Origin: a virus | Lineage: Duplodnaviria; Caudoviricetes | Strand: one strand, 5' to 3' | Length of the DNA stretch: 64,000 bases | Virus record (IMG/VR): IMGVR_UViG_3300025638_000003 | Coordinates: 1 to 64,000 of that record | Made by a program: the position numbers and the translations under genes | Part shown: one piece after another, positions 16,994 to 42,261 of the stretch | How the letters are laid out: each line of letters starts with the position of its first letter | How positions within the stretch are numbered: the stretch's first letter is position 1 | The notes under the pieces: model-generated | What the model was told of the DNA's origin: nothing | The model's input: only the letters and a program-made list of their open reading frames with translations | The model's database searches: none

Positions 16994-17467
16994 ATGAATA
17001 GAGAAGAAAAATTAAAAAAAATTATTGATCAATTAAAAGAAGATGGAATAAATATTGAACCTTCTTTAAAAATTGAAGAAGTGAATATTGAAAAACCAAT
17101 AAAAATAGACGTAAATATTAATGCGTTATGTATTTCTTTTGTAGTTATTAGTGGTTATATGGAAGAATTAAAAAAATCTGGAATTATAGATGAACAATTT
17201 ACTACAATTCATGATTCTGGCAAAAAAATTATTTCGGTGAGTGAAAAATTTAATTGGACTCCTACCGATGAAGAAATTAAAGCTTTTATTTTAGGAGTTT
17301 TGGAAGAAAGTGTACCCGAAAAACAAATTTTTTATTTATGTACTCTTAAACAATATAGAGATGATAAAGAAGGATTATTAAAAAAGTTTAAAAAAGAAGA
17401 GATTCGAGAAATAGAAAATACTGATAAACAATGCTGCTGTGGTGGAATGGCAGACACGCAAGTTTGA
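16994..17467 (+). CDS. Hypothetical protein (3' end runs into tRNA-Leu)
   Basis: 157-aa ORF. Confidence 0.6.
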   Translation: MNREEKLKKIIDQLKEDGINIEPSLKIEEVNIEKPIKIDVNINALCISFVVISGYMEELKKSGIIDEQFTTIHDSGKKIISVSEKFNWTPTDEEIKAFILGVLEESVPEKQIFYLCTLKQYRDDKEGLLKKFKKEEIREIENTDKQCCCGGMADTQV

Positions 17468-17518
17468 GGTACTTGTGCTTTTAAGAGCTTGGAGGTTCGA
17501 GTCCTCTCAGCAGCACCA
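17433..17518 (+). tRNA. tRNA-Leu (GAG)
   Basis: GCTGCTG/CAGCAGC, TTGAGGT loop, long V-arm. Confidence 0.95.
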
Positions 17519-17532
17519 ATAAAAAGGATATT

Positions 17533-17979
17533 ATGATAAAAATAATTACTTCAATGTTAGAAGATAATAGTGGAGGTATTTCTACTATTAGAGTATGTTT
17601 ATTGTTGTGGTTAATAATTCTGGGGTTTAATATGACTTATGGAACTATTACCGAAAAACCATTCCCTATTACAGGAGAATTAGTTGCTTTAACATCATGT
17701 GTATTTGGAGCAAAAGCAATTCAAAGATTTGGTGAGAAAGGTGAAGAAGAAGCGGCGATTGCGTCAAATAATTTAAATACGGGGGACGTTAGAATATCGC
17801 AACTTCCTCTAACTGTGAGTGTGCAAGGATCGGTTCCAGTGAGTGGAATGGTGCCAATTTCGGCCAATCCTTCGGTGCCAACTGTAATTCCAATGACTCC
17901 AGTTGTACCTGAGCCGCAACCAGTTCCAAATCCTCGGGAACCCGAGCCGTGGGGTCCCGGACAAGTAGCTGCGCCTTAA
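17533..17979 (+). CDS. Membrane protein with Pro-rich tail, possible holin-like
   Basis: Two TM segments after GGISTIR; KAIQRFGEK; Pro/Val-rich C-terminus. Confidence 0.5.
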   Translation: MIKIITSMLEDNSGGISTIRVCLLLWLIILGFNMTYGTITEKPFPITGELVALTSCVFGAKAIQRFGEKGEEEAAIASNNLNTGDVRISQLPLTVSVQGSVPVSGMVPISANPSVPTVIPMTPVVPEPQPVPNPREPEPWGPGQVAAP

Positions 17980-17981
17980 AC

Positions 17982-18029
17982 TTGACATTTAAAACTAATG
18001 TGATATAATTTTACATGATCTTTGAAAAT
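17982..18029 (+). promoter_or_regulatory. Sigma70 promoter followed by boxA-like TGATCTTTGAAAA
   Basis: TTGACA-16nt-TATAAT (TG extended) then boxA-like motif before rnpB. Confidence 0.7.
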
Positions 18030-18031
18030 TA

Positions 18032-18267
18032 TTTAGGCGACTTAGACGCTGAATATGGTTAAGCCCATATTTAGAGGAAGTTCGATACTACCAAACCTAA
18101 TGTGGGAGAAAATATTTCATTGACCACAGAAGTAGCAATCCTAAATGTCCGAGGGTGTCGGTTTCCCATTGACGACTGGTTGGAGCAGCAACTATTAGCA
18201 CGTTGCCACAATTTTTATTGTGAGATAAATGTCTAAGATAATACAGAATATCGGCTATTTGCCTAAA
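18032..18267 (+). ncRNA. rnpB: Compact RNase P RNA (rnpB-like), ~236 nt
   Basis: P1 TTTAGGCGA/TTGCCTAAA, P2 CTTAGAC/GTCTAAG, P3, CR-I GAGGAAGTTCGATAC pairing (P4) with CR-V ACAGAATATCGGCTA, CR-II-like CACAGAAG, GAGATAAATG. Confidence 0.8.
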
Positions 18268-18273
18268 GAATTT

Positions 18274-18361
18274 CGGATAGACGCCCATAAGGTAGGTGCC
18301 GAAAGGGCTGCGTAGGTGACGCTAAAACAACAATGTCGTTTCGTTGTTCACCGTCTATCCG
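18274..18361 (+). ncRNA. Unidentified small structured RNA
   Basis: Perfect 10-bp closing stem CGGATAGACG/CGTCTATCCG with internal GAAA hairpin and AACAAC/GTTGTT. Confidence 0.5.
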
Positions 18362-18375
18362 TCAATTTAATAGAT

Positions 18376-18451
18376 GGGGTTATCGTTCAATTTAGTAGGA
18401 TAGGAAATTCGCAATTTTCAGATCTGTGTGCAATTCACAGTAACTCCACCA
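18376..18451 (+). tRNA. tRNA-Ala (CGC)
   Basis: GGGGTTA/TAACTCC with G3:U70, TTCGCAA loop. Confidence 0.85.
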
Positions 18452-18502
18452 TTTTCAAAATAACTGCACTCTTTTTCGTTCGTCTCCACTATTTATTGTT
18501 GT

Positions 18503-19335
18503 ATGAAAATGACAACAATAGTTTGTGCTAATTGTAAAAAAAGTGTGAAAAACCAACAAAGGAAATAACTCGTCAACGTAAACAAGGACGATTAAAATTT
18601 TATTGTTCATTATCATGTTCGTCGTCGAATACACAAATTACAACACACAAAATAATATCAAAATGTTTATGGTGTAAAAATGATTTTTATACTACAACGC
18701 ATAAAAATCATCGAAAATGCTGTAGTAAACTTTGTGCTTATAAATATTCAAGATCATTTGTTAATCCGCAAAAAATTTCAACGTCATTAAAAGAATACAA
18801 TAAACTTCATCCCCGCCATAAAATATATCCTATAGAAAAAACTTTTATATGTACAATATGTAAATTATCATTTATAAAAACTATAAGATCACAATTTGAA
18901 ACATATAAAACATGTGGAGATACATGTTATAGAAAACTTGTAAGTCAATGGACTCGTAATAATCCTAATTGTGGGGGGAAACTTGGATATAGAAGATTTT
19001 TATATAAAGGATATAAAATGGATTCCCGGTGGGAAGTTGAACTGGCAAAATGGATGGACAATCGGAAAATAAAATGGAATAGAAATAAAAAGCGATATAT
19101 GTTTTGGTGGATTGATGAAAATGGAAATAGACGAAAATATTTTCCCGATTTTTATCTTCCTGATTATAAAGTGTATCTTGATCCAAAAAATGCATATTAT
19201 TTAAAACGAGATCTTCCAAAATTACAATATGTAATAAACACGTACAATATTATATTATTTTATGGAAATGTTGAAGATATAAAAAATTCTATTGACAAAC
19301 TATGGAAAAATGTTATAATTAAGGATGTAAATTAA
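18503..19335 (+). pseudogene. Zn-ribbon repeat + PD-(D/E)xK homing-endonuclease-like gene, frameshifted at A7 (18536-18542)
   Basis: Joined translation is a full-length paralog of 20938-21729 (FYCSLSC, NPNCGG, MDSRWE, YFPDFYLPDY, LDPKN). Confidence 0.75.
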
Positions 19336-39747: not shown

Positions 39748-42261
39748 ATGCATCATTTTATTTATCCCGAAAAAGATACTTTTATAACTAATCATCAAGG
39801 ATTAGAAAAGAAAAATTTTGGTCTCGACGAAATTTTACAGGTGGGCACCATTAATTCTCCCAGACCATATCTCAGTGAAACCAAAGAATATTTTTATAAA
39901 AATGAAATTTTAACTGGGAGAGTAGAATCTTTTACAGGAAATTTTGAAGGTTCTTTCTATGGAGAGGCTTTATTTGCTACGGGATCGATAATTGGAGAAA
40001 ATTTATCATTTACTTCTTCATATTTTAAAGGAATTATAGATAGTGTACCAGTAGAAATAAGTGGTAATATAGAGGGAAGTGAAATTTCAGGAATGATTAG
40101 TGGATCAATTATTGCACCTGATTTTATCGAAAAATTTGATGGAGAACTTGTAAGAATTAACGGATGTTTACAAGGAACTGGTTCGGGAGTTGATGTTCGA
40201 ACAGAAAAAAACTGGAAAGTAGTAAATTCTCAATATGTATATCGTTCATTATTAAAATTTAATTTAAATAAAATATCCGAATCAATAGCTAATGGTGAAA
40301 TAACAGATCCTAAATTTTATTTGAATATAAAAATATGTAATGAATTTCAACTTCCACTTGAATATACAATTTATGCTTCTCCTATTAGTAAAGATTGGGA
40401 TAAAGGAATAGGTTATTTATCGGATGGAGGATCCGATAGAGGTGCAAATTGGATATATCGAGATAAAAACGATGGTATTAAGTGGAATGATACTATTTTA
40501 ACCGGACCTAAATCTGCTATAAATTTTATAGACAATCCCGAATTACTTCCAGTTGTATTTGGCTATGGCGGAGGAACGTGGCATTTAGAAGATACATGTA
40601 AGCAGGACTTTTCGCAACAATCGGCTGATGTACGAATGGATGTAACGCCAATTGTCATGAAATGGATTAGTGGAGAAATTCCTAATTATGGGTTTATTGT
40701 ATATTGTTCCGATGAATTAGTTGGAACGGCATATGGTTTCATGCTGAAATTTTTCAGTAAAAATACTAATACAATTTATTCTCCATATTTGGATGTAGCA
40801 TGGAATGATGCTACATTTGTTACAGGAAGTATTACGACGGGAAATGTAGAAATTAAAACGGATGGTCCGTGGATTTCGGCATCAATTTCTTCGGGTTCAT
40901 CCATCAATGGAGAATTTAGTGGAAATTTCACGGGAAGTTCGATTTTTACTATTACTAAAAATTATCTAACGGCTAGTAATTATTTATTTCAAGATGAATT
41001 AGTACAAGAATTTACGGGAAGTTTTACTGGATCATTTTATACCGATGCGCAAGTTTCGGGAACAATTACCGGAAGTGATTTAACATTTACGGTAGATTAT
41101 TTTAGTGGTTCTATAGATGAAACTAAAGACATCATTGAAACGATGGGTGGAGTTTCGGGAATTGATATAGATGGTGTAGTTGAGGGAAATTTATATTCTG
41201 AATTACCATTTGGAGAATATGAAGGATTATTAACAAGTTCCGCCACTTTCTTATCGGGATATGGCACTGGATATTATTTAGATCCAGTTTATAATAGATT
41301 TTGTGGATTTATTTTAGCTACAGGATCTTCGGGAAATATTATCGATTCTCCAGTAATTGGAGAAGCGTGTGGAATAATAACTATAAGTCAATCGGTTATA
41401 ACGGGGTCTTGTGGGAAAACCTTTGATGCAAATTTAGTAACGGGTTCTTTTATAGATGGTGTATATAGTGGTAGTAATTTTACGGCGTATTACGTTAATA
41501 ATCAATTAATGAGTGCATCTTTAACTGGTCGATGGACCGAGGCAGCTATTTTAGGTACAAATATAAATATTCCCATTCCTTCTGGATTTGAACCATATGC
41601 TTTGGCGTATATACATGGAAAATATGTAAAAGGAACGGCATTGGGAATTTATACTATTTCCGGATCTGAAAGTGCAAGCTTTGTTGGAAAATTTACCGAA
41701 GGTGCTCAGGCAGGAGTAGAATTAAATTTACAACTTAATGGAAGTATATATACCTCTAGTTATTCATATACAAGTAGCGTTGAATTAATTACTAATAAAT
41801 TTAACAATCTTGATACAAGCGGGCAATTTTCTATAAATTTACAAAATTTACAGCCTGTATATAGGTCGGGAGATATAATAAAAATATTTGTATTTGGGCG
41901 GAAAAAATTTCCTCATAAATCATTTGGTCGATCTCCACAACAAGAACAATATACTATTCCTGAAATATTGCCCCGCACTTCATTTTATGCAATAAAAGAC
42001 AATCAAACCGATGAAATTGTTATTCCGGCAGATAATTATACTCAAATAAGTTGTGAATATCCCGGAGGGAATTATTTTTATTTGGATACTACGGGATTAC
42101 CACAAGAAAGATATTATCGTGTTTTAATTCAAGTTAGTGATGAAAATAACACTTATACAATAGATACAGGTAAAATTTTTAAAATTGTTCGGGGAGGTTC
42201 TACGGCGGAATCGACTTATCCTCCGGCAGGAGCGCCCGAGATAATGGTAATACAATTATAA
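39748..42261 (+). CDS. Virion structural protein with (F)TGS-rich repeat insertions
   Basis: FIYPEKDT..GLDEILQ..RSLLKF..KFFSKNTNTIYSP..GLPQERYY. Confidence 0.7.
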   Translation: MHHFIYPEKDTFITNHQGLEKKNFGLDEILQVGTINSPRPYLSETKEYFYKNEILTGRVESFTGNFEGSFYGEALFATGSIIGENLSFTSSYFKGIIDSVPVEISGNIEGSEISGMISGSIIAPDFIEKFDGELVRINGCLQGTGSGVDVRTEKNWKVVNSQYVYRSLLKFNLNKISESIANGEITDPKFYLNIKICNEFQLPLEYTIYASPISKDWDKGIGYLSDGGSDRGANWIYRDKNDGIKWNDTILTGPKSAINFIDNPELLPVVFGYGGGTWHLEDTCKQDFSQQSADVRMDVTPIVMKWISGEIPNYGFIVYCSDELVGTAYGFMLKFFSKNTNTIYSPYLDVAWNDATFVTGSITTGNVEIKTDGPWISASISSGSSINGEFSGNFTGSSIFTITKNYLTASNYLFQDELVQEFTGSFTGSFYTDAQVSGTITGSDLTFTVDYFSGSIDETKDIIETMGGVSGIDIDGVVEGNLYSELPFGEYEGLLTSSATFLSGYGTGYYLDPVYNRFCGFILATGSSGNIIDSPVIGEACGIITISQSVITGSCGKTFDANLVTGSFIDGVYSGSNFTAYYVNNQLMSASLTGRWTEAAILGTNINIPIPSGFEPYALAYIHGKYVKGTALGIYTISGSESASFVGKFTEGAQAGVELNLQLNGSIYTSSYSYTSSVELITNKFNNLDTSGQFSINLQNLQPVYRSGDIIKIFVFGRKKFPHKSFGRSPQQEQYTIPEILPRTSFYAIKDNQTDEIVIPADNYTQISCEYPGGNYFYLDTTGLPQERYYRVLIQVSDENNTYTIDTGKIFKIVRGGSTAESTYPPAGAPEIMVIQL

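Follow-up and report, generated by a model that had tools for sequence, protein, structure and literature searches.

RNase P RNA is a universal cellular ribozyme that trims newly made tRNAs. CR-II and CR-III of the RNA recognise the T-loop, the GGU of L15 is the site for the tRNA 3′-CCA, and the P6 pseudoknot, in which J5/7 pairs with the P17 loop, is the hallmark that sets type A apart from type B. Natural RNase P RNAs in which most of the specificity domain (S-domain) is absent have been described from archaea, i.e., the type T RNAs of the Thermoproteaceae, which had been missed by existing models (PMC3579882). Among engineered RNAs, the catalytic domain (C-domain) of the E. coli RNA without its S-domain (Eco CP RPR) retains activity whether or not C5 is present, relies on a P6-like interaction, and can do without P18, and C-domain-only RNAs cleave model hairpin substrates (PMC5839562). 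No published description of a virus-encoded RNase P RNA was found in the literature: RNase P is unmentioned in the huge-phage paper covering LR756501.1 and LR756508.1, and neither a survey of 10,006 candidate structured viral RNAs nor a paper on mycobacterial ncRNAs reports a virus-encoded RNase P RNA.

The RNA described here is encoded by an uncultured wastewater phage, of which near-identical DNA was detected in metagenomes of activated sludge, wastewater, and anaerobic digesters (about ten studies). The stretch analysed (hereafter the window) comprises the first 64 kb (64,000 nucleotides) of a 101.8-kb IMG/VR virus record (IMGVR_UViG_3300025638_000003), whose estimated completeness of ~29% makes a source phage of ~350 kb probable. 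Using ARAGORN, 33 tRNA genes were predicted in the window, all on the + strand and located between 2.3 and 22.9 kb, and the RNase P-like element sits inside this cluster. The region between its promoter and the following tRNA-Ala(CGC) gene comprises ~360 nt without a plausible open reading frame. Eight large open reading frames yielded tail and nuclease-type domains only when compared with Pfam. No IMG/VR relatives were found for the open reading frame upstream of the element, the element region had no match in GenBank phages (blastn), and the element was absent from Microcystis phage Mel-JY01, the nearest cultured relative as judged by an SbcCD-like protein.

Consensus and structure were taken from E. 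coli rnpB (L193:2217-2593, minus strand; 318.6 bits with RF00010) as the reference. The core of the phage RNA, from P1 to P1, spans 18032..18267 on the + strand (236 nt), as do all elements given below, and all of its helices covary. It is closed by P1 (18032-39/18260-67) and P2 (18041-46/18232-37), with the P3 hairpin (18051-58/18065-72) directly 5′ of CR-I, an arrangement that is a type A feature. CR-I and the 5′ strand of P4 (18074..18087) read GAGGAAG-U-UCGAUA with U18081 bulged, and P4 is formed by 18079-80 and 18082-87 with 18249-56. The segment from P5 to P5 (18088..18135) stands at the position of the specificity domain; P5 itself (18088-91/18132-35) encloses the P6 5′ strand, P7 (18102-05/18124-27), and a 4-bp stub hairpin. 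The P6 5′ strand (18093-97) forms a pseudoknot with its 3′ strand in the P17 loop (18160-64). The following part (18136..18184) consists of J5/15 CAA (18136-38), P15 (18139-41/18182-84), P16, and P17, with an internal loop after P15 formed by 5′ UAAAU and 3′ UGGUU (the 3′ side of L15, 18177-81), and this layout matches the RF00010 consensus GCAA-ggcc-AAAUAG...GGGUa-ggcc. Two hairpins (18188-92/18202-06 and 18207-12/18217-22, together 18188..18222) occupy the P18/P19 position, the second of which has a GAAA loop in many relatives. The 3′ end of the core (18222..18257) is made up of J18/2 (CR-IV) GAGAUAAAUG, the P2 3′ strand, J2/4-CR-V ACAGAA, and the P4 3′ strand UAUCGGCUA.

Much of this layout had been proposed in the initial annotation, which placed GAGGAAGTTCGATAC at 18074-18088, ACAGAATATCGGCTA at 18243-18257, and GAGATAAATG at 18222-18231; these coordinates were exact. 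The P1, P2, and P3 helices that it drew were recovered in the minimum free energy fold of 18032-18268 (z = -3.2) and were borne out by covariation, as was the pairing of CR-I with CR-V in P4 (see below). Two of its motif assignments turned out to be the wrong elements: CACAGAAG (18125-32), read as CR-II, consists of the 3′ strand of P7 followed by a variable linker, and GGAGCAGC (18182-89), read as P5′/J5/15, of the 3′ strand of P15 and the first bases of the hairpin after it. GUAGCAA (18132-38) corresponds to J5/15 instead.

Compared with type A RNase P RNA (RF00010, E. coli M1), the phage RNA keeps the order P1-P2-P3, CR-I/P4, P5, P6, P7, and likewise, in the 3′ part, J5/15 CAA, P15-L15(GGU)-P16-P17, a 3′ hairpin that often carries a GNRA loop, J18/2 AGAUAAAUG, and CR-V ACAGAA. 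The P6 hallmark of type A is present, with 98.2% of alignment cells paired. Columns that are invariant in the phage family are upper-case nucleotides of the Rfam consensus and fall within the best-conserved blocks of that consensus and of M1, in the same order and the same helical context. Phage and bacterial sequences read, respectively, GAGGAAGUUC and GAGGAAAGUCC in CR-I, GAGAUAAAUG and AGAUGAAUG in J18/2, ACAGAA..GGCUA and ACAGAA..GGCUUA in CR-V, and UAAAU / UGGUU and AAAUAG / GGGUA in L15. Since CR-I and CR-V each lack one nucleotide relative to type A, with the bulged pyrimidine kept, the phage P4 is without one A-U pair at its base. Further differences concern size (a core of 236 nt in the window phage versus 377 nt in E. 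coli), the presence of two hairpins where E. coli has P18 alone, the lack of P8-P14 and of CR-II/III, and the coding location, the phage RNA being encoded by phages inside tRNA arrays, whereas type A is encoded by cells.

The significant covariance-model match expected under the initial annotation failed for the window copy: no Rfam RNase P model matched the window at its gathering threshold or at E ≤ 10 (all 4227 families scanned). The same was true of the loci of 14 relatives (E ≤ 10), and RF00010 had no match in the whole 101.8-kb record (G000). In the reverse direction, the covariance model built from the phage family (R1) was searched against a 5-kb E. coli locus and had its best match inside rnpB; this match was weak (6.3 bits, E 0.07) and aligned J18/2, P2′, and CR-V in register. 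Of 15 related phage records searched with RF00010, 11 had no match at the element; one of them, G009, had a single match (12 bits, E 0.017), which lay elsewhere. Four members of the family bridge to the bacterial model. RF00010 matched the 484-kb phage LR756508.1 at 76010-76235 (49 bits, E 8e-15; R1 match at 76028-76219), the record of L168 at 40544-40793 (62 bits, E 3e-20; R1 40563-40776), the record of L101 at 77412-77668 (52 bits, E 1.5e-16; R1 77428-77653), and the record of L179 at 64798-65058 (47 bits, E 1.3e-14; R1 64814-65035). With R1, these bridging members scored 78-146 bits, compared to 186.7 bits for the window. The alignment of LR756508.1 to RF00010 was global (model positions 1-367), skipping the S-domain (~79-213) and P18, and the LR756508.1 element aligned full-length to R1. 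As RF00010 matches four members of the same family at E ≤ 1e-14, the window element is homologous to RNase P RNA by transitivity, i.e., it is a homologue of bacterial type-A RNase P RNA. Its initial identification as a phage-encoded RNase P RNA is supported by covariation in the family, the correspondence of its elements to RF00010 and M1, the four bridging members, and RNA contigs. The best family members (47-62 bits) remain below the Rfam gathering threshold of 100 bits, so that the RNAs of the family would escape annotation.

The family comprises at least 55 distinct IMG/VR sequences as well as two published huge-phage genomes in which R1 found the element, LR756501.1 (735 kb, 162 bits) and LR756508.1, both deposited without its annotation. 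IMG/VR was first scanned with the exact CR-I 16-mer, which retrieved nine loci with the whole element and with P3 differing by compensating changes. Most of the 85 exact 16-mer matches were rejected, being located in unrelated coding sequence of phages from one metagenome. A second scan with the J18/2 and CR-V motifs, in which four P4 bases were left free, retrieved at least 115 loci, and 64 of the matches listed carried GAGGAAGUUC 144-325 nt upstream. The four bases after GAGGAAGUUC complement the four free P4 bases in more than 15 different sequence pairs, which establishes the long-range P4 pseudoknot. Among the matches listed, the spacing from CR-I to CR-V was 180-360 nt in fifty unique members, with the window (184 nt) among the smallest. 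In cellular genomes (one per species for 185,579 prokaryote species), the family motif pair, which fits about half of the phage members, gave only three chance matches, all inside coding sequence.

The helix assignments of the window were mapped onto a MAFFT alignment of 30 members (A1) and then onto an alignment of 65 sequences (A3, 55 distinct) built with R1. In A3, 90.2% of the cells formed standard pairs, compared to 33-46% when the 3′ partners were slid by 1-3 columns, and the covariation score was 0.608 versus 0.165 in shuffles, none of 500 of which reached 0.608; A1 gave the same picture. Per helix, the percentage of paired cells in A3 was 99.1% for P4, 98.1% for P5, 98.2% for P6, 96.3% for P7, 100% for P15, 87% for P16, 86.5% for P17, and 91% and 95% for the two 3′ hairpins, which had many changes on both sides. 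Covariation was found at all eight pairs of P3; four pairs of P4 (more than 15 distinct distal sequences) and all five pairs of P6 changed on both sides. Both pseudoknots are absent from the R1 structure, and the pairing in P4 and P6 was thus not fitted by the alignment. The occurrence of P1 and P2 was judged by a positional test at the expected sites, with cross-member permutation as control: 43 of 50 members had P2 in place (29 distinct helices; 12% in the permutation), and 21 of 46 had a contiguous P1 of 6 bp or more (12% in the permutation), with a maximum of 18 bp. CR-I GAGGAAGUUC was invariant in 30 of 30 members, and GA.AAAUG, ACA.AA, and GGCUA were invariant in the family. The structure of the element is far beyond chance, and covariation supports every helix of the type-A catalytic domain.

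The genomic neighbourhood is shared by many members as well. Among the matches listed, 40 of the 50 unique loci carry tRNA genes, which invariably share the strand of the element, and ten have tmRNA; in relatives, too, the element is repeatedly found between tRNA-Leu(GAG) and tRNA-Ala(CGC), in this order. tmRNA genes adjoin the element within a few kb in L069, L075, L087, L089, L092, L098, L122, L126, L132, L150, and L166, so these phages cluster tRNAs, tmRNA, and RNase P RNA; some of the neighbouring tmRNAs score 100-160 bits with RF00023. Additional observations in the relatives were tRNAs with a CUA (amber-reading) anticodon, labelled Pyl by ARAGORN (L087:10182-10256(-) and L132:336-410(+)), and a tRNA with a four-base anticodon (aggg; L137:6676-6770(+)), which may point to suppression or recoding by tRNAs. 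According to R1, a second and weaker copy of the element is present in each of two huge phages (L139:1894-2064(-), 52 bits; LR756508.1 437730-437870(+), 20 bits), and four element-bearing records (G003, G006, G008, and G009, i.e., L107, L168, L179, and L133) are classed as ‘provirus’ in IMG/VR.

At the position of the S-domain, the window phage retains no more than ~26 nt between the two strands of P7, consisting of GGGAG, a short hairpin, and (C)GUUAAnA. Larger members have long idiosyncratic inserts at this position, in which no CR-II/CR-III-like sequence was seen. The reduced specificity domain suggested in the initial annotation hence proved to be a ~26-nt stub without CR-II/III. Archaeal type T RNAs (RF02357; PMC3579882) are likewise natural RNase P RNAs minus most of the S-domain and invisible to existing Rfam models, but they differ in having archaeal-type core features and archaeal proteins, whereas the phage RNA has a bacterial type-A core; RF02357 had no match on the window, and the S-domain reductions of the two are independent. 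The engineered Eco CP RPR (PMC5839562) resembles the phage RNA in being a C-domain without an S-domain, but is a laboratory construct of reduced efficiency, whereas the phage RNAs are natural, conserved, and expressed.

A sigma-70-type promoter with a 12/12 match and an extended -10, TTGACA-16-(TG)TATAAT, is located at 17982..18009 (+), in agreement with the promoter of its own that had been ascribed to the element. Between promoter and P1 lies the leader motif GATCTTTGAAAA (18017..18028, +), which we take to resemble the rrn boxA. At least 13 members of the family share (A/T)TCTTTGA a short way 5′ of P1, and the boxA-like site of the initial annotation is retained as a putative boxA. Another 12/12 sigma-70 promoter with an extended -10 was found at 19292-19319, inside the 3′ end of the open reading frame 19018-19335.

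About half of the sampled words of 17900-18500 were contained in six metatranscriptome runs from five studies, and RNA contigs of four of these runs (X15, X16, X17, and X19) were compared with 17400-18900. Contigs covered 18022-18362 in X15 (341 nt, 0 mismatches), 18025-18363 in X16 (wrapping, with 18363 joined to 18025), 18060-18362 in X19, and 18141-18452 in X17, the last continuing through tRNA-Ala. In these four runs, no RNA contigs were found over 17808-18011 or downstream of 18452. Contigs thus start 13-16 nt downstream of the promoter; since those of three studies end at 18362/3 and two begin at 18022/5, just past the promoter, they point to accumulation of the element as a stable RNA of ~340 nt (18022..18363, +), although contigs cannot prove ends or levels. 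Expression of the RNA was thereby confirmed over 18022-18363, with the flanks uncovered. The size of ~236 nt given in the initial annotation holds for the P1-to-P1 core and not for the stable RNA, which is ~340 nt because a 3′ tRNA-like domain co-assembles with the core. X15 also contains a contig of a second, L181-like family member. In X16, one RNA contig of 369 nt rejoins 18363 to 18025 (‘goes back 339’, depth 17), as expected of a circular or tandemly joined 339-nt RNA; the joint was observed in this single run, and an artefact of library preparation or assembly could account for it. The downstream tRNA-Ala(CGC) gene (18376..18451, +; ARAGORN and Rfam) is crossed by the X17 contig and is probably co-transcribed with the core. 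This tRNA has an odd T-loop (UGCAAUU vs UUCRAAU), one of only three non-canonical ones among the 33 tRNAs.

The 3′ tRNA-like domain (18274..18363, +) is conserved and folds separately from the core, with a 10-bp closing stem (18274-83/18352-61), and is present in the same RNA contigs. It is characterised by a conserved first arm, a GGUGA/UCACC helix, and a covarying closing stem, and had no match in Rfam or by ARAGORN. At least six members possess it, i.e., the window and L038:2147-2229, L169:1513-1602, L153:190-282, L177:5680-5770, and L144:11074-11152 (all on the - strand). In these relatives it starts at a G+1 preceded by U-1 and ends with ..CUC-A-CCA, similar to a tRNA acceptor, and in the window the end has degenerated (C+1 and U-CAA). 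The domain is missing from most family members, and others have a genuine tRNA-Ala at its position, directly after P1. It could direct processing, mimic a substrate in tethered form, stabilise the RNA, or stand in for the contacts of the S-domain.

With regard to possible substrates, all 33 tRNAs of the window encode CCA and 24 have U at -1. In the RNA, P15 follows GCAA, and its 3′ strand is preceded by a conserved GGUU, forming a predicted CCA site, and, as far as can be read from the sequences, the encoded CCA and U-1 of the tRNAs fit the retained L15 GGU and J5/15 adenosines. The loss of T-loop recognition had initially been linked to many non-canonical T-loops in the phage tRNAs; this is not supported, as 30 of the 33 tRNAs have canonical GTTCRA T-loops, and the link to the loss of the S-domain fails on the same count. 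An rnpA gene, found missing from the window already in the initial annotation, was also absent (PF00825) from G000 and from five related genomes of 390-735 kb, three of which are 98-100% complete according to CheckV; the 735-kb genome was reported as circularised in the huge-phage paper. As no phage rnpA was found, any protein partner must be that of the host.

Taken together, the architecture of the catalytic domain is intact and strongly constrained, and the RNA is transcribed and associated with tRNA arrays. We assign a probability of roughly 70% to the reading that the element is a phage type-A RNase P RNA, its S-domain cut to a stub, that cleaves the 5′ leaders of phage pre-tRNAs together with host RnpA. 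The strong promoter of the element would give rise to one transcript comprising the core, the tRNA-like 3′ domain, and probably tRNA-Ala(CGC), and this transcript would fold into a C-domain-only ribozyme. Host RnpA could be recruited via the conserved surface of P3, J18/2, and CR-V, L15 would bind the 3′-CCA of the tRNA, and the ribozyme would then cleave the 5′ leaders of the CCA-bearing phage pre-tRNAs. Capacity for processing the tRNAs of the large array may thereby be increased, or that of the host enzyme replaced. The P6-dependent activity of the isolated E. coli C-domain (PMC5839562), together with the 98% conservation of P6 here, makes such a C-domain ribozyme plausible; judged from the sequence features, tRNA 5′ maturation is the most likely role of the phage RNA.

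An active core might instead have been retargeted to act mainly on substrates other than pre-tRNAs, e.g., hairpin-plus-CCA and tRNA-like RNAs (including the attached 3′ domain), precursors of phage tmRNA, or specific mRNAs. The absence of the T-loop-reading elements is consistent with such a change, as are the tRNA-like domain (U-1/G+1, A-CCA) directly after P1 in several members, where others have a true tRNA, the tmRNA genes near ten loci, and the activity of C-domain-only RNAs on model hairpin substrates (PMC5839562). We nevertheless regard retargeting as unlikely, given that most members are without the 3′ domain and that the simplest substrates are the canonical tRNAs, with encoded CCA and U-1, in whose arrays the element sits.

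Somewhat more doubtful is a role as a catalytically dead decoy that titrates host RnpA or pre-tRNA, or diverts a host defence directed at, or triggered by, RNase P or tRNAs. The RNA appears abundant, its CR-I is one nucleotide off the universal consensus, and host RnpA would be the partner in the absence of a phage rnpA, all of which would suit a decoy; yet selection also maintains features that a protein sponge could do without, namely P6, the adenosines of J5/15, the GGU of L15, and the geometry of P4 including the bulged pyrimidine, and a phage with an investment of at least 33 tRNA genes would itself suffer if tRNA maturation were blocked. That the element is an unrelated structured phage RNA with a chance resemblance to RNase P RNA, as the missing Rfam match of the window copy and the weak reverse match on E. 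coli rnpB might suggest, is effectively excluded by the bridging members, whose global RF00010 alignments (E ≤ 1e-14 in all four) lie exactly at the element, and is further opposed by ~25 invariant nucleotides that fit CR-I, CR-IV, and CR-V in the right helical context and by two pseudoknots with the topology of type A.

Beyond tRNA 5′ maturation by the window copy, we lean slightly towards the broader view that large phages encode active RNase P ribozymes as a distinct S-domain-less class of type A, some of them fused to a tRNA-like domain and maybe circular, which would be the first viral and the smallest natural bacterial-type RNase P RNAs. Within such a class, the tRNA-like 3′ domain could be a built-in substrate, a processing signal, or a substitute for the lost S-domain. 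If the RNAs are active, they would expose a blind spot of the Rfam models, as was the case with archaeal type T, and the about 55 variants would represent natural minimal RNase P RNAs from which the needs of a catalytic domain without an S-domain can be studied. To the tRNAs, tmRNA, and translation factors that large phages bring along, the ribozyme for tRNA maturation would then be added, which would widen the possible independence of a phage from its host.
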